From positions 153,644 to 217,643 of the forward strand of contig CAVTOA010000003.1 in assembly GCA_963736285.1 (NCBI GenBank): a stretch of DNA of 64,000 nucleotides. The letters run 5' to 3'. The notes beneath the pieces were generated by a model that saw only the letters and a list, made by a program, of their open reading frames with translations, did not search any database and had not been told where the DNA came from. Positions 40,195 through 53,446 of the stretch are shown piece by piece (position 1 is the first letter of the stretch; the number at the start of each line of letters is the position of its first letter). Both the position numbers and the translations under genes were made by a program. The DNA is from an uncultured Acidimicrobiales bacterium (GTDB lineage Bacteria; Actinomycetota; Actinomycetes; Mycobacteriales; QHCE01).

Positions 40195-41868
40195 TTAGTC
40201 GCGGGTGAGTTTGCGGTAGGTAGCCCGGTGCGGACGAGTGGCGTCCGGGCCGAGGCGCTCCACTTTGTTCTTCTCGTACGAGTCGAAGTTACCCTCGAAC
40301 CAATACCAGTTGGCGTCGCCCTCGTAGGCCAAAATGTGGGTCGCCACCCGGTCGAGGAACCACCGGTCGTGGGTAATGACCACCGCACATCCCGGAAACT
40401 CTAGAAGCGCGTTCTCCAGCGACGACAGCGTCTCGACGTCGAGGTCGTTGGTGGGTTCGTCCAACAGCAACACGTTGCCACCCTGTTTGAGGGTCAACGC
40501 CAAGTTGAGCCGGTTCCGCTCTCCACCAGACAGGACCCCTGCCGGCTTCTGCTGGTCTGGCCCCTTAAAACCGAACGCACTCACGTATGCCCGCGACGGC
40601 ATCTCTACATGCCCTACTTGCAGGTGATCAAGGCCGTCGGAGACGACCTCCCAGACGTTTTTCTTAGGATCAATGCCAGCTCGGCTCTGGTCTACATAAG
40701 ACAGTTTGACGGTATCGCCGACCCGCACGTCGCCAGCGTCTGGCTTCTCCATGCCGACAATGGTCTTGAACAGTGTCGTCTTGCCCGCTCCGTTAGGGCC
40801 AATGATGCCGACGATTCCGTTACGTGGCAACGAAAAGCTCAAATCGTCGATCAGGACCCGATCGTCGAAGCCCTTGCGCAACCGCCCTGCCTCAATGACC
40901 GAGCTACCCAGACGCGGACCCGGCGGAATCTGGATCTCTTCGAAGTCAAGCTTGCGTTCTTTGTCGGCCGCCGCCGCCATCTCCTCATACCGAGCCAGCC
41001 TGGCCTTGCTCTTGGTCTGCCGCCCCTTGGCGTTGGAGCGCACCCACTCCAGCTCTTCTTTAAGCCGCTTCTGGCGTTTGGCGTCTTTCTGACCCTCAAC
41101 TTTGAGGCGCTCCGCCTTTTTCTCCAAATAGGTGGAGTAGTTGCCTTCGTAGCCGATCGCGCGGCCGCGGTCGAGCTCCAGGATCCACTCGGCCACATTG
41201 TCCAAGAAGTATCGATCGTGCGTGACCGCGAGAACACAGCCCGGGTACTTGGCCAGGTGTTGCTCCAGCCATAGCACGCTTTCGGCGTCGAGGTGGTTAG
41301 TGGGCTCGTCCAGCAGCAACAAGTCTGGCTGCTGCAACAGCAGCTTGCAGAGCGCGACCCGGCGGCGCTCGCCCCCAGAAAGCACGGATACATCGGCATC
41401 CGGCGGTGGGCAACGCAGCGCGTCCATAGCTTGCTCGAGCTGTGAGTCGAGATCCCAGGCGTTGAGGTGGTCGAGCTGCTCCTGCAGCTTGCCCATCTCT
41501 TCCATCAACTCGTCGGTGTAGTCGGTGGCGAGTTGTTCGGCGATGGCGTTGAACCGCTCGAGTTTGGCCTTGGTCTCGGCTACGCCATCCTCGATGTTGC
41601 CCAAGACCGACTTGGTCTCGTCCAGCGGAGGTTCCTGCAGCAGGATCCCTACTGTGTAATCGGGAGACAACACTGCGTCACCATTGGACGGTTGCTCCAT
41701 CCCCGCCATGATCTTCAGCACGGTGGATTTACCGGCACCGTTAGGCCCGACCACCCCGATCTTAGCCCCGGGAAGAAACGCTAGCGTTACGTCGTCGAGA
41801 ATAACTTTGTCGCCGTGCGACTTGCGCACCTTACGCATGGTGTAGATGTACTGAGCCACGCCACTCAT
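40195..41868 (-). CDS. ettA: Energy-dependent translational throttle protein EttA (ABC-F)
   Basis: 'QYIYTMRKVRKSHGDKVILDDV' and two cassettes ('GPNGAGKST'/'LSGGERRRVAL', 'GPNGAGKTT'/'LSGGERNRLNL'). ATG 41868 with a GGAAGG RBS. Confidence 0.95.
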   Translation of the reverse strand: MSGVAQYIYTMRKVRKSHGDKVILDDVTLAFLPGAKIGVVGPNGAGKSTVLKIMAGMEQPSNGDAVLSPDYTVGILLQEPPLDETKSVLGNIEDGVAETKAKLERFNAIAEQLATDYTDELMEEMGKLQEQLDHLNAWDLDSQLEQAMDALRCPPPDADVSVLSGGERRRVALCKLLLQQPDLLLLDEPTNHLDAESVLWLEQHLAKYPGCVLAVTHDRYFLDNVAEWILELDRGRAIGYEGNYSTYLEKKAERLKVEGQKDAKRQKRLKEELEWVRSNAKGRQTKSKARLARYEEMAAAADKERKLDFEEIQIPPGPRLGSSVIEAGRLRKGFDDRVLIDDLSFSLPRNGIVGIIGPNGAGKTTLFKTIVGMEKPDAGDVRVGDTVKLSYVDQSRAGIDPKKNVWEVVSDGLDHLQVGHVEMPSRAYVSAFGFKGPDQQKPAGVLSGGERNRLNLALTLKQGGNVLLLDEPTNDLDVETLSSLENALLEFPGCAVVITHDRWFLDRVATHILAYEGDANWYWFEGNFDSYEKNKVERLGPDATRPHRATYRKLTRD

Positions 41869-41936
41869 CCTTCCAGGTGTCTCATTCCATGACCCAACGT
41901 GGTGTAGGTGAACAGAAGGCAAATCAAGGAGCCCCC

Positions 41937-43283
41937 ATGCAATTGCCGCATTCAACACCGCGCGGCTTGGCAGCTATTCCCGCGACTTCACCCGCGTCGA
42001 CGCGTGCACCATGGCGGGCACGAACCGCCCTCGTCATTGGTCTCATTGGTGCGACCGCGGCGCTCGCCGGATGCGATCAGCACATGAGCGCTGTCGCTAA
42101 TGCGAGCAACCTCGAAGGCGTCGGACCAGTTACCTTGGCATTGCGCTCCGACCACATCACCCCCACCATTCGCAGCCAAATCGATCAGTGGAACCGCACC
42201 CATAAAAGCGAAACGGTCACGCTCAACGAGCTGCCAGCGGGATCCAGCGCTGCCCGCAATGCCGTTACCTCCGATGCCAGCAATGGTAGAGAGCATTCGT
42301 CCATTCTGGAGCTTCCGTTCGACCAAGTCGCAGAATTCGCCGACCATGGTTGGATCGCACAGCTCCCGAGCACGAACCTCGCTCTGGACTCCATGCCGGA
42401 CCCGGTCGCGCAGAGCGTGCGGTACTCGGGTTCGGTCTACGCGGTTCCTTATAGCCTCGACGTGGCCCTGCTCTACTACCGTGCCGACCTACTGCAGAAG
42501 GCCGGAGCGCAGCCTCCATCCACATGGGACGATGTGGCCGCTGATTGTGCCGCGATAGCCAATCCCCAGCACCTCAATTGCTTTGGTCTTCCACTATCCG
42601 ATAAGAACGAATTAACCCGCGCCGCTATAGACGCCGTGTCCACATCGGATGGAGCGCTGATCGACAGCAACGATGCCCCCGCCGCCGACACCGACCAAGC
42701 CAGGGAAGGCATCGGCGCACTAGTGAGCCGCGCTCAGGACGGCACCATCACCCGCGACCAATCCTCCACTGCACTGCGAAGCGCCTTCACCGACGGAAAG
42801 CTGTTGTTCTTGCGGGACACCGCCGATTCTGCGGGTGCGTTAACCGCAGCACAGCCACCTACCGAAACCGCTGGGCAGGACGGCAGCGTCGGCGTCGCCA
42901 CCGTGCCCAGTGTGCACGGCGGCGGGTCAGTGACCGCCGAAGGCGACGCGCTGGCAGTCTCCGCTTCCGCTGAGCACCAGGAGACCGCGCTCTCCGTCAT
43001 TGCCTACTTGGCACACTCACGCAACGCGGACGCCCGTACCGCAGCTGACGGCACACCGACGCCATACCCACAACATTGGACGAATGCGGTAGTCCAGCGC
43101 TATCCAGCGCTTGGCGTCGTTCGAGACGCCACCTCGGGCGCGGTGCCGTGCCTGCCCATCACCCGCTACGCCGCTTTTAGCGAAGCTGTCTCCGATGCGC
43201 TCGGCCAGTCTTTACGAGGAGAAGCCTCGGTCGACCAAGCACTGGCCGGTCTTCAACGCCGCCTGGAGAATCTGCTCGGCTGA
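41937..43283 (+). CDS. Lipoprotein, ABC-transporter sugar-binding protein (family 1 SBP), orphan
   Basis: Lipobox 'ALAGC' and typical SBP blocks ('VYAVPYSLDVALLYYRADLL'). AAGGAG RBS before ATG 41937. No permease or ATPase genes are adjacent. Confidence 0.75.
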   Translation: MQLPHSTPRGLAAIPATSPASTRAPWRARTALVIGLIGATAALAGCDQHMSAVANASNLEGVGPVTLALRSDHITPTIRSQIDQWNRTHKSETVTLNELPAGSSAARNAVTSDASNGREHSSILELPFDQVAEFADHGWIAQLPSTNLALDSMPDPVAQSVRYSGSVYAVPYSLDVALLYYRADLLQKAGAQPPSTWDDVAADCAAIANPQHLNCFGLPLSDKNELTRAAIDAVSTSDGALIDSNDAPAADTDQAREGIGALVSRAQDGTITRDQSSTALRSAFTDGKLLFLRDTADSAGALTAAQPPTETAGQDGSVGVATVPSVHGGGSVTAEGDALAVSASAEHQETALSVIAYLAHSRNADARTAADGTPTPYPQHWTNAVVQRYPALGVVRDATSGAVPCLPITRYAAFSEAVSDALGQSLRGEASVDQALAGLQRRLENLLG

Positions 43284-43408
43284 CACCCGGGGCCAGTACA
43301 CCCATTTAAAAATCGCTGCCGCAAACGCACCAAGCCGCTAGCTCCTCTTATAGGGTAAAGCGGTCATATGCCATTGGCATTGCACGAGTCAGATGCGGGG
43401 GCATCGCG

Positions 43409-44827
43409 GTGACGGGCGAGGATCGTGCGGACTTTGTGGTGGTAGCGAACCGATTGCCCGTCGACCAGCACAAGGCCCGCAGCGGAAAAAGCACGTGGCA
43501 GCCAAGCCCGGGGGGTCTTGTGACCGCACTGGAACCAGTCATGTCTCGCGAAGACGGTGTATGGATTGGGTGGGCTGGCTCTCCAGGCTTGGCACCAGAG
43601 CCGTTTAGCGCTGACGGACTCAAACTGCACCCGGTTTCCTTGTCCAATGAGGACATTGTCGATTACTACGAAGGTTTCTCGAATGGAACGCTGTGGCCGC
43701 TGTACCACGACGCGGTGGCCGCGCCGCAATACCACCGGCATTGGTGGGAACGCTATTACACAGTAAACAAACGATTTGCCGAAGTCACCGCAGAGGCCGC
43801 AGCCGACCGGGCGACCGTGTGGATCCAGGATTACCAGCTACAGCTCGTACCCGGAATGCTGCGAGAGTTGCGACCCGATCTACGAATTGGCTTTTTTCTG
43901 CATATTCCGTTTCCCCCCATCGAACTATTCATGCAATTGCCGTGGCGCAAACAGCTTGTTCGGGGACTACTCGGTGCCGACTTGATCGGATTCCAACGGC
44001 CAGAAGGTGCCGACAATTTCTTGCGGCTCGCCGAATACTTGGTCGATCTGCCGCGCAAGGCCGATACCACCACAGTGGACGGACGCACGGTCACCGCACG
44101 AGCTTTTCCGATTTCTATCGATGCACCGCGATTGAGTGACCTTGCTTACTCGCCTTCAGTAAGGGACCGAGCAAAACAGATTCGGAAAGAACTGGGCGAT
44201 CCGCGCTACATCATTTTGGGTGTCGACCGTCTCGATTACACCAAAGGAATAGACAAGCGGCTCAAAGCCTTCCGCGAATTGCTGCGCGACAAAGAAATCT
44301 CCGTTCCAGAAACCGTTCTTGTGCAGGTTGCTACACCTAGTCGAGAAAGAGTAGAGCACTATCAAGAGCTGCGCGAAGACATCGAACGAGAAGTAGGGCG
44401 CATTAACGGCGACTTTGGCCGAGTGGGAACGGCGGCGGTTCATTACCTGCGGCAGTCCTACGGAAAAGAAGAACTGTGTGCGCTCTACAGCATCGCCGAC
44501 GTCATGCTGGTGACGCCACTGCGTGATGGCATGAATTTGGTGGCAAAGGAGTACGTCGCGTCTCGGCCAGATTTGGGCGGAACACTGGTACTCAGCGAGT
44601 TCACTGGTGCGGCCGCCGAACTTGAGGGTGCATTCTTGGTCAATCCACACGACGTGGACGGGCTCAAGCGCGCGATCGTCGACGCACTGCGGGTCGACAA
44701 AGAAGACGGTCGCCGAAGAATGTCGACCATGCGCGAATACCTGCTAGAACACGATGTTGCCCGTTGGGCGCGCGACTTTCTGACCGCACTAGGTGCGCCA
44801 GACGCAGAGAATGCGGCACCACGATGA
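43409..44827 (+). CDS. otsA: Alpha,alpha-trehalose-phosphate synthase (GT20)
   Basis: '[11 protein letters not shown]', '[11 protein letters not shown]', '[16 protein letters not shown]'. Confidence 0.93.
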
Positions 44828-45792
44828 GTCGACCTTTCGGACTCGACGAACAAGCCAGCGTCTTGCGGGTGGCCTGCTCCCCCTGGCTCGATGTCGTCAG
44901 CGATTACGACGGCTCGCTCGCGGGCTTTGCTACCGATCCGGCTAAAGCGTGGCCGTTTCCCGGAGCAGTGGACGTGCTGCAGCGTCTCGCCACCACTCCG
45001 AATACTCGCACCGTGGTGTTGACCGGTCGCAACCCACTCGATGTGCGCCGGTTAATTCGATACGGCGCCGACAATTTTTCTCCCGACGAAAACACACTCA
45101 GCTTTACTCTCAAAAATGGCAAAACGGGAAAGCTGCTGGTGACGGGGAATCACGGCAACGTCGCAGATCCCGAGCTGCGGCAGCAGAAAAGCTCAGCAAT
45201 TTTGACCGACTATGACATGGCCATCCGAGAAAAACTCATCGCTGAACTGCGGAGTGCACTCGGCGAGCAATTCCCAAAATATTCCGACAAGATCGTCGAC
45301 AGCGCCAGTGACAATCCTGATAATTCTATTTTCCTAGAGCACAAGACCACCGGCGTCACAGTTCATACGCGCTCGTTTCGCACAGAGGCACAGCACGATG
45401 CCGAACGCATAAATGACTTTGCGCACACATTTGCTAAGGAGTACTCGGAGAAAAATGCTCCACTATTTGTTCTCTCCGGCGTAAAAAGCACCGAAATCTC
45501 AGTTCGAAAGCTCAATAAAGGAAACGGAATTGCGCAAATACGCGCGACGCAACCCCGCAATGTCTCGGCCAGTCTGATCTTCATTGGAGACGACATCACC
45601 GACCTATCGGCGTTCACCCGACTGGGTTCGGACGATCTTGGCGTGGTCGTAGGAGATCGGATTGTCCAAGAAATTCAGAGCATGGAAAAAAAACCGGAGA
45701 AGCTCATTTTTGTCGATGAACCGGCAGCCGTGGTCACCCTGCTAGAGCAGATCAGTCTCATGAGAGAAACGAGCGTCGCATCAACAAGCTAG
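44824..45792 (+). CDS. otsB: Trehalose-phosphate phosphatase (HAD)
   Basis: The ATG overlaps the otsA stop (ATGA). Motif I 'VSDYDGSL', motif IV 'FIGDDITD'. Confidence 0.8.
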
Positions 45793-45809
45793 CCTCGTTG
45801 CCCTCCCCA

Positions 45810-45860
45810 AGCTGACCGGTCATTTTCTGGATTGAGACTTCAGAAACCGACCGGTCAGCT
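45810..45860. terminator. Bidirectional hairpin between the convergent otsB and cobB-like genes
   Basis: AGCTGACCGGTC (45810-45821) / GACCGGTCAGCT (45849-45860), perfect 12-bp arms. Confidence 0.5.
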
Positions 45861-47243
45861 GGAGGGCGCCATTCTGGAATTTGCGGCGGCTGCTCTCTCG
45901 GTAAAGAGCCTCATCCGTTGCGGCATCGCCGGCCAACCGAGCTCCAAAAAGGATGCATAGAGGTTACTCCGAACAAATCCCTCAGCTGGTCGGCCCGACC
46001 ATCGCCATGCGGCAGAACCGCCCGCGCGTGGGTCCATCTCCCACCGGCGAAGAACGTGACCGACAACCCGTGTTCCCGCGTTAGCCGCAACATGATCGCT
46101 GACAGCGATCGCGTCCCGATAGCCGCCGAAGGCTTGGTCGCCGAGGTGGGCGCGCCCACCAATAACGCCGCACATTTCATGCGAATCAAAACCGTTCGCC
46201 AGCCACCACACACCCCCGCCCTCCGCCAGAATCGGCGCATCGGCGGCCGCGAGTTGCCTGACCGCAGCACACAGCTCGGTATTTTTCGCCAGCTCCTCGA
46301 CATAGTGCGTTGGCAAACCTCCCCCGATGACCAGTCCCGACGTTGCCGGAGGCAACGCGGAATCTCGCAAAGGATCGACCAGCTCAATATGTGCCCCAGC
46401 CGCCTCAAGCAATGCACGGGTTTCGGCGTAGCCATAAGCAAGGTCGCCGGCACCGAGCATGGCCACTGTCGGTCTTTCTGATCCCCATCGTTCCGGCGCC
46501 TCCGCCCCCTCAACAGCGACAGCGTCCGACGCCGACCACATCGGCGAGCTGATAGCCGGCGCAGATCGCGCAATTGCCAGCAGCTGATCGAGATCGCACC
46601 CCCGCCGCACCGATGCGGCATAACTCGCGAGGGCGGCGGTGACCGTCCGATCACGATGCCCAGCGGGCACGATCCCGCTCCGGTGTGACGGCAAGGGGGC
46701 GAGGCCGTCACGATCGAGAACACCCAGTACGGTAACGCCGATCTCCATCAGTGCTTCGCGGAGTGAACGGGCATGAGAGCTCGATGACACCCCGGTGAAA
46801 ATAACGCCGGCAAGCCACAGCGAGGGATCGAAATTTCGCATTCCTTGAACAGTGGCTGCGGCTGAACGTCCTTGCCCGGCCGCATTCACGACCAAGACCA
46901 CTGGCGCCTGTAGCAGTGCGGCGACTTGTGCGGTAGTGGCCTGGGTGCCGGCATCGTCGTAGAGGCCCGCGACTCCCTCCACAATGGCCACATCTGCGGC
47001 CTGTGCGGCAGCGGCAAACAGTGGCGCTATTCGTTTGGGCCCCAGTAAACGAGGATCTAAGTTGTGCCCACGACGCCCGGCCGCGAGAGTGTGATATGCC
47101 GGCCCCACATGATCCGGGCCAATCGTGTGGCCGCTCACCCGCAGACCACGAGTATTGAGGGCCGCCAAAATGCCCGTTGTTACCGTGGTTTTGCCGCTTC
47201 CTGCTGACGGGGCGGCTATCACTAACCGTGGAACAACAGTCAC
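45855..47243 (-). CDS. Cobyrinate a,c-diamide synthase family protein (CobB/CbiA-like), orphan, with a degenerate glutaminase domain
   Basis: P-loop 'APSAGSGKTT'. The C-terminal GATase-3-like region reads 'ILAEGGGVWWL', where family members carry the nucleophile Cys (ECGG). Confidence 0.75.
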   Translation of the reverse strand: MTVVPRLVIAAPSAGSGKTTVTTGILAALNTRGLRVSGHTIGPDHVGPAYHTLAAGRRGHNLDPRLLGPKRIAPLFAAAAQAADVAIVEGVAGLYDDAGTQATTAQVAALLQAPVVLVVNAAGQGRSAAATVQGMRNFDPSLWLAGVIFTGVSSSSHARSLREALMEIGVTVLGVLDRDGLAPLPSHRSGIVPAGHRDRTVTAALASYAASVRRGCDLDQLLAIARSAPAISSPMWSASDAVAVEGAEAPERWGSERPTVAMLGAGDLAYGYAETRALLEAAGAHIELVDPLRDSALPPATSGLVIGGGLPTHYVEELAKNTELCAAVRQLAAADAPILAEGGGVWWLANGFDSHEMCGVIGGRAHLGDQAFGGYRDAIAVSDHVAANAGTRVVGHVLRRWEMDPRAGGSAAWRWSGRPAEGFVRSNLYASFLELGWPAMPQRMRLFTERAAAANSRMAPSS

Positions 47244-47317
47244 CGAATTTCCTTCTTATTTTTGTATCCGCGTTGGGGCTGATGGCGAATGCCTTCCACA
47301 ACACCTAATCTGACGCG

Positions 47318-48109
47318 ATGTTAAGCGAGCACGGCAAGCTGATCGGTGTCGAGGTATTTATCGGCGTGATGGCGGGCGTCTTGTCGGGCCTATTTGGGGT
47401 TGGCGGCGGAATTGTCCTAGTGCCTCTCATTACGCTGCTGTTGCACGTTCGGCAGAAGGACGCACATGCCACATCACTGGTCGCCGTGTGTCTCACCTCC
47501 CTTGTTGGTAGCGCCTCCTATGCCATCACCGGAAATGTGTATTGGCTTGCGGTTGTCATGTTGGCGGTGGGCGGCATTGTCGGTGCACGGATAGGGGCGG
47601 CGACGGTGCGTCGAATCAGCGATCGCCGGCTACGCATCGCCTTTGCCGTGCTGTTGTGCGTGGTAGCGGTAGTGCTGCTGACTGGCGTGACCCCGAAAGA
47701 AGGCCTCACCGCCGGTCTCGGCTCCGCCGGAATGATTCTCAAGGCATTGGGCTATCTCGGCACTGGCCTCGTCGCGGGAGTCCTTAGTGGACTTTTTGGC
47801 GTGGGTGGTGGATTGATCATGATTCCGCTGCTCGTTCTCATCGGCGGGCTCGACCAGCATGTGGCCGAGGGGACCTCGCTGGCCGCGATCGCCCCCATCG
47901 CGTTGGTGGGTGCACTCGAGCACAGCAAGAGTGGCTACACCCGCTGGTCGCTGGGTGTTCGGCTCGGCCTCGGTGGAGCACTGGGCTCTTTGGCCGGGGT
48001 CACGTTGGCGCTGGCACTTTCCGGAACCGTATTGCAGCGGATCTTTGCCGTAGTGCTCGCTGCCGCAGCAATTCAGATGGTGCTTACGAGTCGGGGTCAT
48101 CGAGGATAG
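47318..48109 (+). CDS. TauE/SafE family sulfite/anion exporter
   Basis: Internal duplication with 'LFGVGGGIVLVPL' and 'LFGVGGGLIMIPL', and 7-8 TM helices. Confidence 0.85.
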   Translation: MLSEHGKLIGVEVFIGVMAGVLSGLFGVGGGIVLVPLITLLLHVRQKDAHATSLVAVCLTSLVGSASYAITGNVYWLAVVMLAVGGIVGARIGAATVRRISDRRLRIAFAVLLCVVAVVLLTGVTPKEGLTAGLGSAGMILKALGYLGTGLVAGVLSGLFGVGGGLIMIPLLVLIGGLDQHVAEGTSLAAIAPIALVGALEHSKSGYTRWSLGVRLGLGGALGSLAGVTLALALSGTVLQRIFAVVLAAAAIQMVLTSRGHRG

Positions 48110-49274
48110 TCGCGGAGGAACCCCATTCTCTGCTGGTCCCGTTGACGCTTCGCCCTGCCGGTACCGCATGAACGAGATCGCTGGCCAGACGCCTGCTAGG
48201 TCGAGCCTCGGCCGGCTGAACATCGCCCTCTCGGCTCGCCGAGCGTGGCCGCACAGCCACCTGTTCGACATCGTTTTCTGCTGCGGTGGGCTCGTTTTTT
48301 ACAACCTCATTGAGGTCGGTGTCACCGAAGTGGCCTCGCCGATTTTGCGGGCCGGCCATAGGCTCAGGGTCTTGTTCTGGTTTAAGACCTTGCGGTTGAG
48401 CTTCGTGGCCAAACGATTTACGGGGCTGCGCCGCCACCTCGGCTTGATCGTCTTCCTCCACCTGAGCCGAGTACTGACGTATCTGGTCTGGGTGCGGGAT
48501 GGCCCCCGAAATGCGCGGCCGGTGTCGTGAACCTCTAACTCCTACTCCACCAGAAAAAGCCGCACCGGCTTCCGCCGAGCTCACCGTTGCGTTCGCCGGC
48601 TCCTCGGTCACGGACAGTCCCGGCGCGCTGGAAATGGGGCTTTGCTCCCGCTTCCGCGACCTCTTAGGCACGGGAGAATTATGCGAAGAGGCAACCACCT
48701 CTGAAGTGCCAGAGTCAGCCTCGGCCAAATGATCCGTGATCTCCAACAGCTGTTGCCCGTCTCGGCCCTGATACAGGCTGGCGCGCAGCAGACTCACGGG
48801 AACTCGATAGTCCAACAAGAAATCCACCGATGACTTAATTACTGGGCTGAACTCTGTGGCGATCACGATGAGCCGAGGTTTGGCTGACGTGCTCGACGGC
48901 AGGGCAGCACCGCCGAAACGCTGCCACCCCCGCCAAAAGTCGTCCTCGCCCTGCCCATGCAACTCGGCTAGCTGGTCCATACCGACACCGCGAGCCCAGC
49001 CCACGTGTTCCAACGACTCAGCTAGCTCATCCACACCCAGTGCGAGCGAGACCTGGACTACGACGACGTTGCCCGTGGAATCGAGAGCGAGTACGGATCG
49101 TCGGTTAGCTCGCAATGGTGAAGGTCCACAGTAGACGCGATATAACCGCTCCCCCACCGCATCATCGAGGCTGCGCCACATAATCTGCACCAATGCCTCT
49201 TGATCGGCGGCGGAGTCGGGCGTGATCGAATTTAGCGGTGTGAGGCCGTCCGAGCTCACCTGGAAAAGCGCCAT
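48084..49274 (-). CDS. Hypothetical protein: N-terminal PD-(D/E)xK/NucS-like fold with substituted catalytic residues, plus a ~200-aa disordered tail
   Basis: 'VLALDSTGNVVVVQVSLAL' aligns to the nuclease pattern D..G..V.VE.K, with Q and S at the E and K positions. 'PRLIVIATEFSPVIKSSVDFL' follows. It is downstream of the SSB-like gene on the same strand. Confidence 0.45.
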   Translation of the reverse strand: MALFQVSSDGLTPLNSITPDSAADQEALVQIMWRSLDDAVGERLYRVYCGPSPLRANRRSVLALDSTGNVVVVQVSLALGVDELAESLEHVGWARGVGMDQLAELHGQGEDDFWRGWQRFGGAALPSSTSAKPRLIVIATEFSPVIKSSVDFLLDYRVPVSLLRASLYQGRDGQQLLEITDHLAEADSGTSEVVASSHNSPVPKRSRKREQSPISSAPGLSVTEEPANATVSSAEAGAAFSGGVGVRGSRHRPRISGAIPHPDQIRQYSAQVEEDDQAEVAAQPRKSFGHEAQPQGLKPEQDPEPMAGPQNRRGHFGDTDLNEVVKNEPTAAENDVEQVAVRPRSASREGDVQPAEARPSRRLASDLVHAVPAGRSVNGTSREWGSSATILDDPDS

Positions 49275-49398
49275 GGGGGGATCCCTTCCTGTCAGCTTGT
49301 AAAACGATCAAGCCCGCGGTTAGACGCGGATAGGTGAACGAGAAAACCTGCGAACCGATATGCGCCACGCCACAAACCTGTGGAACGACGGCTACTGC

Positions 49399-49818
49399 CT
49401 ATGCGGCCACCATCTCCACCATGTTGTCGACTTCTGTATCTACATCGGCTGGTGGCAGATCACGGTTTCGGGTAAAGCTAGAACGGCCTTTACTCAAATC
49501 GAAACCCACGGCCGTTGCATCCAACTCACAACCAACCCGACGTTGTTCGTTCACTGTATAGCTACGGGTATAAAGCCGACCCATCACCACAACCGGATCG
49601 CCTTTGGCCACGCTGTGGGCTACATTGTCGCCCAGCGTCCGCCAGCAGTTGACCTTGATGAATAACGAATCACCATCACCGAACGCCCCTGTCGCACGAT
49701 CGAAGCGTCGCGATGTAGACGCCACTCGTAGGTTGGCAACGGTAACGCCGGAATCTAGCTTCTGCCACTGCGGGTCGTCCACGACATTGCCGACGATCGT
49801 AATAAGCGTTTCGAGCAT
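49399..49818 (-). CDS. Single-stranded DNA-binding protein paralog lacking the acidic C-terminal tip (Rv2478c-like)
   Basis: OB-fold blocks 'ITIVGNVVDDP', 'VANLRVAST', 'DSLFIKVNCWRTLGDNV', 'GDPVVVMGRL'. Confidence 0.8.
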   Translation of the reverse strand: MLETLITIVGNVVDDPQWQKLDSGVTVANLRVASTSRRFDRATGAFGDGDSLFIKVNCWRTLGDNVAHSVAKGDPVVVMGRLYTRSYTVNEQRRVGCELDATAVGFDLSKGRSSFTRNRDLPPADVDTEVDNMVEMVAA

Positions 49819-50226: not shown

Positions 50227-51444
50227 CTATGCCTTGGCAGAACCCTCGCTGGCAGCGCTACGGCGACGACGGGTCACGATGTACAGTGCCGCACCACCGC
50301 CGATGAGGAGCGCACCCACACCCGCGAACAGGCCGGCCTGCGCACCGGTCACGGGTAGAGAGCTGCCGCCCTCGCCGCCGTTGGCCTGATTGTCATAGCT
50401 GACCTGCGCGGCCTGCTTGACGGGCAAAGTGCCGCCAGTGACCACCATGGCGGGGTTGACCTGGCCGCTCGTGACAGTTGCGAGTACCTGTCCAACAGCT
50501 TCCTGTGGACCGCCAACTGCCTCGAGCAGGACCTTGCCCTTGTCCGCACCTTTAGGAAGAGCTACAAAGTAGTCCTTACCTGCCTGAAGCTCGGTTACTT
50601 TGTTACCAGCCTCATCCAGCAACTGACCGCTCGCTGGGTTGGCAAGGTTCACATTGACGTCCTTCGCGGCGTCGGGAGCCTTAACGGGCCCGAGCAAACG
50701 AGTGGTGTCGCCACCCACCTTGTCCTTCAACGCAGCGGGCAAGTCGGTGACACTCGGTGCGCCAGTCTCTGGCAAGTCCAATGCCGACATTTCTTGAACA
50801 GGGGCACCGACGTTGGCCTTGCTGGTCAAGTAGTTGTAAAGGTCGGCAACCGCTGGTGGGTTACCAGCTGAAGCCAGCTTGGTTCCGTCGGAGAAATGCC
50901 AGACAGCGGCCTGAGTCGCGGCGACGGCTTGCTGTGGGGTGAGCGCTTCGCCTACGGGCAGGTTGGCCTTACCCGCGAGGCTCTGGACCAAGGAGGTGAC
51001 ATCGCCAGGGTTGGCGTCCGCAATGGCCGCGTTCTTCACGATCCACTGGATGCGTTCCAGGGCGCCCTTCGGCAGATTGGCAGCAGAAGTGGCGTTAGCG
51101 AGCGGAAGCTGGCCATTCTCCAACTTCTGAGCTGGGTCTAGCGAGAAGCCTTGGACGGTTTGACCGTCTTGCTCGGCGGCAAGCATCTGAGTCGGCAGCT
51201 TTTGGGTCGCTCCGCCAGGGCCTTCGGCGACAATCGACCCGACGGTGCCGGGGACAGCAGTGACATGAGAAGGCACAGCCGTGGCCTGACCCGGAACGCT
51301 TTGCACGGTACCGGTGACGGTGGAAAGGTCCGGAGCAACGTCGGCGACCGCGGCTGACGAGTAGGTCATAGCAGCGATCGCGGCTACACCTGCGGCGCCA
51401 ACAATGCGCAAAGATCGACCACGGAATTGACGTGGGGAAGACAA
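50227..51444 (-). CDS. LPXTG-anchored surface protein with a TQXA (thioester-type) domain in which the Cys position is Ser
   Basis: Signal peptide present. 'GFSLDPAQ' aligns to 'MYCIDLKTDAQ' of the paralog. 'ERIQWIVKN' and 'AVAATQAAVWHFSDG' match the domain. Sorting signal 'LPVTGAQAGLFAGVGALLIGGGAALYIVTRRRR'. The protein contains no Cys at all. Confidence 0.8.
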   Translation of the reverse strand: MSSPRQFRGRSLRIVGAAGVAAIAAMTYSSAAVADVAPDLSTVTGTVQSVPGQATAVPSHVTAVPGTVGSIVAEGPGGATQKLPTQMLAAEQDGQTVQGFSLDPAQKLENGQLPLANATSAANLPKGALERIQWIVKNAAIADANPGDVTSLVQSLAGKANLPVGEALTPQQAVAATQAAVWHFSDGTKLASAGNPPAVADLYNYLTSKANVGAPVQEMSALDLPETGAPSVTDLPAALKDKVGGDTTRLLGPVKAPDAAKDVNVNLANPASGQLLDEAGNKVTELQAGKDYFVALPKGADKGKVLLEAVGGPQEAVGQVLATVTSGQVNPAMVVTGGTLPVKQAAQVSYDNQANGGEGGSSLPVTGAQAGLFAGVGALLIGGGAALYIVTRRRRSAASEGSAKA

Positions 51445-51600
51445 GGGTTTTACCTCCCAGTAATGGGCTTAATGCGCGCTTCTATGAAGGGGGTATCGCA
51501 ACGCGCGCTTTTTAGAGGACGCGAGCGAGCGTAGTAAAACCCACGTCATTAAATCCACCCCGATTAACAATTAATAGAAATAAAAGACACTGCTTTGTTT

Positions 51601-51653
51601 TGTGAATACTGTAAATGGCAAGTATTTACATGCATAATTAGCAAATATTCACA
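51601..51653. promoter_or_regulatory. Nested inverted repeats in an AT-rich region upstream of the LPXTG gene
   Basis: TGTGAATA (51601-51608) / TATTCACA (51646-51653) enclose TGTAAAT (51610-51616) / ATTTACA (51624-51630). Confidence 0.35.
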
Positions 51654-51815
51654 TTGTGTATTACTACTGCAACTTTAAGTAAAGAATAGTTGCCGACTGG
51701 GTACAGCAGTGGCAAAAACGTTCAGGCGCAACAGGTCGGTTAAGCTGTGCACCTGACTCACCTCGCCAAAATTGGCATCGCCAACAACGACCCCGGCCAG
51801 TCAAGGCGAGTCGGA

Positions 51816-51888
51816 GCGCCCGTAGCTCAGTGGATAGAGCATCGGACTTCTAATCCGACGGTCGCAGGTTCGAATCCTGCCGGGCGCG
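51816..51888 (+). tRNA. tRNA-Arg (anticodon TCT)
   Basis: Acceptor GCGCCCG/CGGGCGC, anticodon arm TCGGA-CTTCTAA-TCCGA, T-loop TTCGAAT. Confidence 0.9.
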
Positions 51889-52315
51889 CAATCTGGGGCT
51901 TTTTTCAAAATCCTGGTTCGTCGGAATCGCCACGATCATGTCTCCGCAGAAATTGCCTGAGGTGCTTCATCGGAGTACGTCACGAACCGACCTGGGATAC
52001 ATCCGCCGTCGTTGTGCGGGTCGCGCCGCCCAACTCCCCTCATGGAACTGAATCCACGGCATTTCATCAATTTTCGGACAATTTTCGACTTTGCTGTAAT
52101 GAAAGTTCTTCACCGCACGTTTTAGTAGTGACACGTGCGTGCAACAGCGCGCTTAGCGTCTCTTGTGGCTCAGGACGGAGGTTGACTATCGGCAAACTCA
52201 CAACCCGGTTTTCCACAGCTACCCCGTATTTACCTGCGCACTTATCGGAAAACCCGTATATTAATTTGGTCTGTTATCACCTGAAGCACTTCGCTTCACC
52301 AAAAGAATTGACGAG

Positions 52316-53446
52316 ATGCACACAAACCTAAAAAAGGGCCTGCGTCGCGCTGCGGGCCTATTCACGCTGACGGCCACCGCTGCCGCCCTAGTCCTCGGGT
52401 TCCTCGCCCAACCTGTTGCGGCCAAGCCAGTTGAGGGCCAGCTTCTTCAGAGCCGCGACTGGGGATCTGACGTCCACATCAAGGGCGAAAATCACGCCAT
52501 CCAAACGGCATTGTTCACGTTGCAGCTACAAGACAAGTCCCAGCTCACCATGTACTGCATCGACCTGAAGACCGATGCGCAGAGCGGTACGACCTACGTC
52601 GAAGACAAATGGAGCAACTACCCTGGTGAGGGCAAGTTCAAGGCCCAGCCCGAGAAGGTCAACTGGATTCTGCACAACTCTTACCCCTCGGTAAATCTGG
52701 CTCTGTTGCAAGACCTCGCCGGCATCGACACCCTGTCTAAAAAGGACGCAATTGCTGGTACTCAGGCGGCGATCTGGTACTTCAGCAATGGTGGCGAACT
52801 GACCGACGACAACAACGCGGTAGTGAAGGCGCTCTACACCTTCCTCACGGGCCCGGCCAACATTGGCATCAAGTCCGAGCCGAAGGCTTCGTTGACGATC
52901 GACCCAGACACCGCTACTGGTAAGGCCGGCGACAAGATCGGTCCGTTCACCGTCACGTCCAACGCCACGTCAGTTCCGCTCCAGTTCACCGGTGATGGTG
53001 GCGCAACTTTGGTAGACGAAAACGACAATGTTGTCACCACCGCTACCAACGGCAGCAAGCTGTACGTCAAGGTTCCGGCTGACGCAAAAGATGGTCAGGC
53101 CACTATCGATGCCACGGTCAACACGACCGTCGAAACTGGTCGGTTGTTCTTGGGCAAGAACCACAAGAAGACCCAGACCCTGATCACCGCTAAGACCACG
53201 CAGACCAAGGTCAGCGACAGCGTGTGTGCCAAGTGGACCGCTACTCCGGTTACTCCGACCACCCCGGTTCCGAGCACTCCCGTGCAGACCACTCCTGTTG
53301 CGCACACTCCAAGCCAGCCGACTCTGCCAGTAACGGGCGCACAGGCCGGCTTGTTCGCCGTCCTCGGTGTTGTCCTTGTTGGTGGTGGCGCAGCGCTATT
53401 CATTACCACGCGTCGTCGCAAGAACGCCGCTAAGGCCGCCTCCTAA
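52316..53446 (+). CDS. LPXTG-anchored Cys-Gln thioester-domain (TQXA) surface adhesin
   Basis: Signal peptide present. Thioester Cys motif 'MYCIDL', then 'EKVNWILHNSYP', then Gln motif 'IAGTQAAIWYFSNGG'. Sorting signal 'LPVTGAQAGLFAVLGVVLVGGGAALFITTRRRK'. Confidence 0.85.
   Translation: MHTNLKKGLRRAAGLFTLTATAAALVLGFLAQPVAAKPVEGQLLQSRDWGSDVHIKGENHAIQTALFTLQLQDKSQLTMYCIDLKTDAQSGTTYVEDKWSNYPGEGKFKAQPEKVNWILHNSYPSVNLALLQDLAGIDTLSKKDAIAGTQAAIWYFSNGGELTDDNNAVVKALYTFLTGPANIGIKSEPKASLTIDPDTATGKAGDKIGPFTVTSNATSVPLQFTGDGGATLVDENDNVVTTATNGSKLYVKVPADAKDGQATIDATVNTTVETGRLFLGKNHKKTQTLITAKTTQTKVSDSVCAKWTATPVTPTTPVPSTPVQTTPVAHTPSQPTLPVTGAQAGLFAVLGVVLVGGGAALFITTRRRKNAAKAAS

Follow-up and report, generated by a model that had tools for sequence, protein, structure and literature searches.

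The window analysed here, 64,000 nucleotides of contig CAVTOA010000003.1 (assembly GCA_963736285.1) from an uncultured Acidimicrobiales bacterium, carries two divergent genes for surface proteins of the thioester domain (TED) family. We refer to the two open reading frames as ORF A (50227-51444, minus strand), which encodes 405 amino acids from a TTG start, and ORF B (52316-53446, plus strand), which encodes 376. The two are paralogous proteins, probably sortase-anchored, of which ORF B is a standard family member and ORF A has most likely lost the thioester and serves a non-covalent or structural role. The Cys of the bond is replaced by Ser101 in ORF A and the partner Gln by Asn330 or Pro331, and a confident class II TED fold is still predicted. 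A preliminary description of the locus had offered two readings of ORF A, a non-reactive paralog or a protein with a Ser-Gln oxoester; the first agrees with what we find, and the second does not. Homology, fold class, residue equivalences, the joint loss of the bond pair and synteny were computed, and on this basis we infer the ORF B thioester, the surface display and the non-covalent function.

Two class II thioester domains beside a tRNA gene

The two genes lie one on either side of a tRNA-Arg gene (anticodon TCT; 51816-51889, plus strand), which ARAGORN places within the 871-bp divergent intergenic region. The proteins are recognizable paralogs, with 28% identity (BLASTP, E 7e-21) and FSLD of ORF A opposite YCID of ORF B. 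Profile searches find the same family in both: Pfam TED matches ORF A with 43.9 bits (3.4e-11) and ORF B with 70.7 bits (1.5e-19; cut-off 22), and TIGR03934 (TQXA_dom) matches them with 33.0 bits (4.2e-08) and 56.5 bits (1.9e-15; cut-off 30.4). For ORF A the Pfam match takes in profile positions 22-101 only, so that the Cys-bearing start of the model is unmatched. The coordinates and divergent arrangement given in the preliminary description, and its assignment of a TQXA-type domain to both proteins, are thus borne out by the ORF listing, ARAGORN and the two profiles.

The AlphaFold2 model of ORF A has a mean predicted local distance difference test score (pLDDT) of 79.7 and a predicted template modelling score of 0.72; that of ORF B has a pLDDT of 86.1. 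The top Foldseek matches in the PDB are 6fwy (7.5e-09) and 6fwv (3.8e-08) for ORF A, and 6fwv (3.7e-14) and 6fwy (6.9e-13) for ORF B. Both structures are class II TEDs, and the alignments to them span about 280-335 columns for both models. Class I TEDs give weaker matches to both proteins, limited to the head domain, and every significant fold match of ORF A (E <= 0.001) is a TED. As judged by these models, both proteins are TEDs of class II, whose β-sandwich belongs to the TED itself, a status that the preliminary description missed. It follows from the fold matches that what looks like a separate immunoglobulin (Ig)-like domain after the helix bearing the TQ motif (the TQ helix) is the β-sandwich insert of class II, after which the bonding Gln is to be expected. 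The extracellular part of each protein would consist of one class II TED, that is, a head made of a β-barrel and three helices, with the inserted β-sandwich.

Sequence searches are less revealing. A single-sequence search of PDB sequences with ORF A found nothing, and a profile of the Cys-less clade described below gave a weak match to PDB sequences, limited to the TQ helix of Cpa. A canonical-family profile and a fold search were therefore needed to reach the solved TEDs.

The predicted thioester of ORF B

Which Gln forms the bond? The thioester Cys of TEDs sits in a [YFL]CΦζ motif (PMC4450167; PMC6194298), and the thioester Gln on strand Q, one of the late β-strands, within a weak ΦQζΦΦ motif (PMC4450167 section 6; PMC6194298). 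The TQxxΦW motif, on helix α2, is a separate element whose Gln and Trp adjoin the bond, hydrogen-bond the Cys backbone and are dispensable for bond formation (PMC4450167; PMC6194298). The crystallographic class II pairs are BaTIE Cys71-Gln266, EfmTIE86 Cys88-Gln292 and SaTIE Cys296-Gln467 (PMC6194298). The preliminary description had taken 'YCID' and 'TQAAIWYF' of ORF B as the thioester pair; this has to be corrected, since the TQ-helix Gln is not the partner (PMC4450167; PMC6194298), and for ORF B the partner is predicted to be Gln287. The oxoester half of that description was built on the wrong Gln.

The assignment in ORF B comes from a profile of 59 Cys-bearing actinobacterial relatives. 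The column of Cys81 (in MYCID; codon 52556-52558, plus strand), the predicted thioester Cys, is invariant in these 59 canonical relatives, and in the ORF B model Cys81 ends β-strand E76-81. Just two Gln columns of the profile are invariant. One is Gln150 in the TQAAIW helix motif (52760-52777, plus strand), which aligns to ATQLAVW of BaTIE, and the other is Gln287 in KKTQTLITA (53174-53176, plus strand), present in 59/59 aligned relatives. The family profile matches BaTIE 6fwv with an E-value of 5.3e-13, and the aligned region crosses the β-sandwich and reaches the strand KVQNTTVLL, whose Gln (chain index 235, residue 266) is the crystallographically proven partner. The TQ-helix Gln of BaTIE, counted on the same profile alignment, is about Gln123 and is distinct from Gln266. 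The Cys-to-Gln spacing is 206 residues in ORF B and 195-244 in 193 canonical relatives, as compared with 195 in BaTIE and 204 in EfmTIE86, and is therefore class II-like. ORF B also carries all three TED motifs (YCID, TQAAIW and TQTLI).

Invariance, the BaTIE alignment and the spacing together lead to Cys81-Gln287 as the predicted pair, and we regard ORF B as a candidate ordinary class II TED adhesin. Cys81 (strand C) and Gln287 (strand Q) would autocatalytically form an internal thioester, which a ligand amine could then attack to give a covalent link.

Loss of both bond residues in ORF A

Ser101 of ORF A (TCG; 51142-51144, minus strand) stands opposite Cys81 of ORF B in BLASTP, MAFFT, hmmalign and hhalign alignments. 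ORF A has no Cys at all, and ORF B has two, Cys81 and Cys304. The Asn330-Pro331 pair (50452-50457, minus strand) occupies the strand-Q position of the thioester Gln: Pro331 lies opposite Gln287 in MAFFT and hhalign, and Asn330 in hmmalign, so that the canonical acyl donor is gone either way. A comparison of the Cys-less and canonical profiles by hhalign (probability 100%, E 3.6e-57) pairs S101 with C81, Q178 with Q150, and P331 with Q287. In the AlphaFold2 model Ser101 ends β-strand E95-101, and residues 328-337 form a strand. The helix-α2 motif is retained as TQAAVW (Thr177-Trp182; 50899-50916, minus strand), and its Gln178 is not the bond-forming Gln. Of the three TED motifs, then, ORF A fits TQxxΦW with TQAAVW and departs from [YFL]CΦζ with FSLD and from ΦQζΦΦ with Asn330/Pro331. 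Three statements of the preliminary description, that FSLD stands at the Cys position, that the protein is Cys-free, and that the TQ-helix motif is kept in the minus-strand paralog, stand as made. If the alignments are right, a thioester or its oxygen analogue between the canonical positions of ORF A is chemically impossible.

Cys-less relatives of ORF A

Is ORF A alone in this? An exhaustive HMMER search of 1.84 billion representative proteins returned 120 hits, and for a census 243 TED sequences were aligned to the canonical hidden Markov model. The Cys column of several clade members was misplaced by hmmalign, and for these members we relied on MAFFT and hhalign. The ten closest hits (P0010-P0017, P0002 and ORF A itself) are all Cys-less, and from P0018 on nearly all sequences have YC[IV][DE]. 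A survey of orthologs for Cys or Ser at this column, which the preliminary description had proposed, gives a mixed answer. Ser is common, being present in ORF A, P0011, P0002, P0013 and P0015, but the clade also has Thr (L002 and L003), Pro (P0012 and the best hit, P0010), Arg (P0014 and P0017) and Gln (P0016).

The second bond residue tends to be lost with the first. Gln is found at the 287 column in 193/193 full-length Cys-bearing proteins versus 10/20 resolvable Cys-less ones (Fisher p = 4e-12 for co-loss, uncorrected for shared ancestry). The replacements in Cys-less proteins are N/P, D, A, A, P, N, S, G, L and R, and the strand-Q Gln is missing from the nearest relatives of ORF A, P0010, P0011 and P0012, as well. 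The TQ-helix Gln, on the other hand, is kept in all Cys-less proteins and is the sole invariant column among 73 aligned sequences. Since it is kept equally with any residue at the Cys column, it must be conserved for a reason other than bonding. The pattern of the Cys and Gln287 columns appears to be that expected of a functional pair decaying together.

Nearest-neighbour analysis points to several independent Cys losses. Separate from the loss in the ORF A clade are those in a Nocardiopsis group (L014, L044 and L078, plus L027), and P0049, P0051 and P0087 are singleton losses. P0141, in which Ala replaces the Cys, shares 54% identity with the Cys-bearing P0144. L022, from N. mangrovi, has Ser with the Gln kept and is 82% identical to the Cys-bearing L060 from N. 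sediminis; it is a very recent natural Cys-to-Ser swap. The Nocardiopsis loci (L014, L022, L027, L044, L078 and L060) are tandem arrays of two to four TED paralogs with one copy Cys-less.

Two side observations concern other members of the ORF A clade. P0011 (NUS74288.1; L084 6313-7815) is named 'Cys-Gln thioester bond-forming surface protein' at NCBI and has Ser and Ala at the bond columns; the name was propagated through the family match alone. Among P0002, P0013, P0015 and P0017, some have the TED and LPXTG separated by one or two additional β-domains that contain Cys. These extra domains of the Cys-less clade (alignment columns ~440-640) give faint PF05506 matches, and ORF A is without them.

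Predicted surface targeting and retention of ORF A

Both proteins have an N-terminal signal peptide and a C-terminal LPXTG motif followed by a hydrophobic span and a basic tail. The signal peptide of ORF A (51340-51444, minus strand), read from the sequence, has a basic n-region, the hydrophobic IVGAAGVAAIAAM and then AVA|D; residues 1-37 have pLDDT < 50 in the model, and the N-termini of the orthologs P0010, P0011 and P0002 align with it. The LPVTG sortase motif of ORF A (50344-50358, minus strand) precedes a membrane span and a tail of RRRR, and the TED lies ~12 residues from the sorting signal. That of ORF B (53324-53338, plus strand) is likewise evident from the sequence and from TIGR01167 (LPXTG_anchor), which scores 17.6 bits for ORF A and 20.6 bits for ORF B (cut-off 15.9).

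The sorting signals LPVTGAQAGLF...RRR[RK] are common to the two proteins, and their DNA is ~70% identical, with many synonymous differences. The protein-level likeness despite the synonymous differences suggests that a single sortase constrains both. The ~70% DNA identity and the many synonymous differences also led us to reject recent gene conversion between these signals. ORF A and ORF B are the only LPXTG proteins in the window, and a search for the TLxTC sortase motif found none in any frame of the window. In these respects, the signal peptides, the near-identical sorting signals and the lack of a sortase gene in the window, the preliminary description was accurate.

ORF A also has a conserved genomic setting. 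Directly downstream lies an SSB paralog (49399-49818, minus strand; Pfam SSB 3e-17), a syntenic marker of the Cys-less clade, and its second syntenic neighbour is a 396-aa protein with no Pfam match (48084-49274, minus strand). The common gene string reads TED, SSB paralog, a 396-490-aa protein without Pfam match, TauE, OtsA and EttA, and is shared by L001, L002, L003, L083 and L084, and by L004 without the SSB gene, at 27-36% protein identity. In the window the string occupies 40195-49818 and includes EttA, a solute-binding protein, OtsA, SURF1/CobQ-like genes, TauE, the no-Pfam protein and a second SSB paralog. By tblastn, the first ~200 aa of the no-Pfam neighbour are 31-40% identical in L001-L004, L083 and L084. 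EttA (40195-41958, minus strand; 587 aa from a GTG start) is 87-88% identical to proteins of uncultured Mycobacteriales/Corynebacteriales metagenome-assembled genomes, and the organism can be placed close to these. Retention at a fixed locus across this divergence argues for purifying selection and not decay. ORF A thus appears to belong to a syntenic clade of intact thioester-less TED-fold surface proteins from uncultured actinomycetes.

What might such a protein do? The clade would be old and vertically inherited, with its thioester chemistry lost. The predicted fold is retained in ORF A, as are the signal peptide, the TQxxΦW helix and the LPVTG anchor, and the protein most likely still reaches the cell wall and is displayed on it. 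There it may bind non-covalently in the same cleft, or have a structural role in the envelope.

Several points weigh against this reading of ORF A and ORF B. The juxtaposition of Ser101 with Asn330/Pro331 rests on alignment and secondary structure, not on distances. In the HMMER alignment BaTIE Gln266 and ORF B Gln287 fall on the same strand with a one-residue offset, beside a two-residue gap. Gln328 lies in the same predicted strand of ORF A (SGQVNPAMVV), two to three residues upstream of the partner column, though a register shift that would bring it into place is unlikely. Where TEDs are without the Cys, Ser most often takes its place, and a sister subclade (P0002, P0013, L002 and L003) combines Ser or Thr with a retained Gln, a pattern that would fit a hydroxyl nucleophile. 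The frequency of Ser has a simple explanation: Ser is one substitution from TGC and nearly isosteric with Cys, and so is the expected first replacement whether or not its hydroxyl is used.

Alternative explanations

Is ORF A a non-reactive decoy or competitor for the ligand of ORF B, or its partner? Such a role would explain the adjacency of the two genes, which are divergent neighbours with near-identical sorting signals, and a Cys-less copy beside canonical copies recurs in the Nocardiopsis tandem arrays. The available flanks of the ORF A orthologs L001-L003, L083 and L084, however, contain no canonical TED, and at only 28% identity between ORF A and ORF B a shared ligand is not required. 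We consider this explanation unlikely.

A hydroxyl ester somewhere in this group of proteins, either from Ser101 of ORF A to Gln178 or Gln328 or, more plausibly, in the sister proteins with Ser or Thr and a strand-Q Gln, is quite improbable. Members with the latter combination are P0002, P0013, L002, L003, the Nocardiopsis proteins L022 and L044, and P0051. If the idea were true, these would be natural 'oxo-TEDs', whose cross-link would be slower or non-reactive.

One might think that a protein that has lost both catalytic residues is a decaying pseudogene, a non-functional remnant of a duplicated TED gene, the more so as the N-terminal part of ORF A falls outside the Pfam model match and the exact protein is known from one sequence only. 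But the reading frame of 405 codons is unbroken and still encodes the signal peptide, LPVTG, the membrane anchor and the basic tail, and its AlphaFold2 fold is confident. Moreover, the sorting signal is conserved as protein despite its many synonymous differences from that of ORF B, and positional orthologs in the same gene string, in at least six genomes and at 30-40% identity, imply long purifying selection. Decay is a highly improbable account of ORF A.

Could Ser101 form an oxoester with the canonical strand-Q Gln, oxygen replacing sulfur? Ser101 occupies the very column of the Cys, Cys-less TEDs have Ser there more often than any other residue, and Ser/Thr-Gln ester cross-links are known in a different adhesin fold (PMC12679949). 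The alignment already contradicts the idea for ORF A, which has Asn330/Pro331 and no Gln at the bonding position, and P0010, P0011 and P0012, its nearest relatives, all lack the strand-Q Gln. Nor does the chemistry encourage it: engineered SfbI-TED C109S is thioester-deficient although the Gln is present, behaving like C109A and Q261A in calorimetry with the melting of a bond-less domain (bioRxiv 10.64898/2026.02.05.703941). The known Thr/Ser-Gln esters, furthermore, need a His/Asp/Glu set and an Ig-like fold (PMC12679949); that set was not sought in ORF A. We take a canonical oxoester to be extremely unlikely.

The same must be said, with equal force, of an ester from Ser101 to a non-canonical Gln, the TQ-helix Gln178 or Gln328. 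Gln178 is invariant in the 73 aligned sequences, Cys-less ones included, the TQ-helix Gln directly adjoins the thioester in solved TEDs (PMC6194298), and only two to three residues separate Gln328 from the partner column. The TQ Gln is nevertheless kept equally strictly in relatives whose Ser column holds Pro, Arg, Gln, Ala or Gly, which makes its conservation independent of any nucleophile. Its role is backbone hydrogen-bonding, not that of acyl donor (PMC6194298), it is dispensable in solved TEDs (PMC4450167; PMC6194298), and an ester of this kind is without precedent. The oxoester of the preliminary description, which paired Ser101 with this Gln, finds support at neither site.

That Ser101 is a sequencing or assembly error masking a Cys can be dismissed, as TCG is two substitutions from TGC or TGT, making a single-base error unlikely, the partner Gln is missing too, and the ten closest database relatives, from independent assemblies, are all without Cys.

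Relation to known systems

The best structural matches of both proteins are the class II TEDs BaTIE (6FWV) and EfmTIE86-TED (6FWY), which together with SaTIE (PMC6194298) represent that class. Like these, ORF A and ORF B have a β-sandwich inserted into the head, a TQxxΦW helix and the setting of an LPXTG-anchored protein, with an identity to the solved structures of only 11-20%. The bonding Gln of class II TEDs comes ~200 residues after the Cys (spacing about 170-205), close to the value in ORF B, whereas ORF A lacks both bonding residues. Unlike the class II TED proteins, both have no isopeptide or ester stalk domains, the TED being set almost directly on the sorting signal. The class I TEDs (SfbI-TED 5A0L, Cpa 2XI9/4C0Z and CpTIE 5A0G; Walden et al. 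2015, PMC4450167) belong to the same family, PF08341 / TIGR03934, and have in common with ORF B the fold of the head and both the [YFL]CΦζ and the TQ motif; they differ in having no β-sandwich insert and a Cys-to-Gln spacing of ~150 residues. It is in this class that the nearest experimental analogue of the ORF A Ser, the C109S variant of SfbI, was made.

Two further systems bear a more distant likeness. The Cpe0147-type ester domains of Gram-positive surface proteins join a Thr or Ser oxygen to a Gln side chain (PMC12679949), with Ser nucleophiles in engineered and in predicted natural domains (PMC12679949). They differ from TEDs in their Ig-like fold, their protease-like His/Asp/Glu machinery and their purpose, a stabilising cross-link and not a reactive warhead; Pfam and Foldseek searches gave no Cpe0147-type fold or family match for ORF A. 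The thioester-less paralogs of the α2-macroglobulin/complement family, such as the type II bacterial α2-macroglobulin MagD (PMC5764988), are folded and functional non-covalently after loss of the motif. The fold and motif (CXEQ) of that family are unrelated to those of TEDs, so that the likeness is one of evolutionary logic, an analogy only.

Cys and Gln have been called universally conserved in TEDs (Walden et al. 2015, PMC4450167; Miller et al. 2018, PMC6194298). The proteins described here would be natural exceptions: surface-targeted, confidently folding TEDs without the Cys and often without the Gln as well. Neither natural Cys-less TEDs nor a TED oxoester turned up in the searchable literature, whose incomplete coverage makes this weak evidence. 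The TED fold would then have a function independent of the thioester, and the label 'Cys-Gln thioester bond-forming surface protein' is given to proteins predicted to be unable to form the bond, as with P0011. ORF A and ORF B would offer a natural comparison, within one organism, of the fold with and without a thioester. The chemistry is not new, and the novelty of the Cys-less clade is modest.

Other features of the locus

The G+C content is 0.49-0.54 across 51200-52700, a stretch comprising the intergenic region and the 5' half of ORF B, versus ~0.61 around it. Insertion of ORF B at the tRNA-Arg gene was considered and rejected, as a direct repeat of the tRNA end was not found and the G+C content is merely mildly lower. 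A promoter scan gave no match, and terminator-like sites occur at chance level. A 194-aa ORF at 51747-52331 (plus strand) spans the tRNA-Arg gene and the intergenic region, and is almost certainly no gene.

Among the syntenic neighbours, the C-terminal half of the no-Pfam protein looks disordered. The database protein for EttA from the same contig has 557 aa, and the true start is probably ~30 codons downstream of the GTG. Finally, an identical copy of ORF B is present on L082, a 2167-bp Logan contig from an independent sequencing run (ERR11523651), which means that another sampling has captured the organism or a very close relative.

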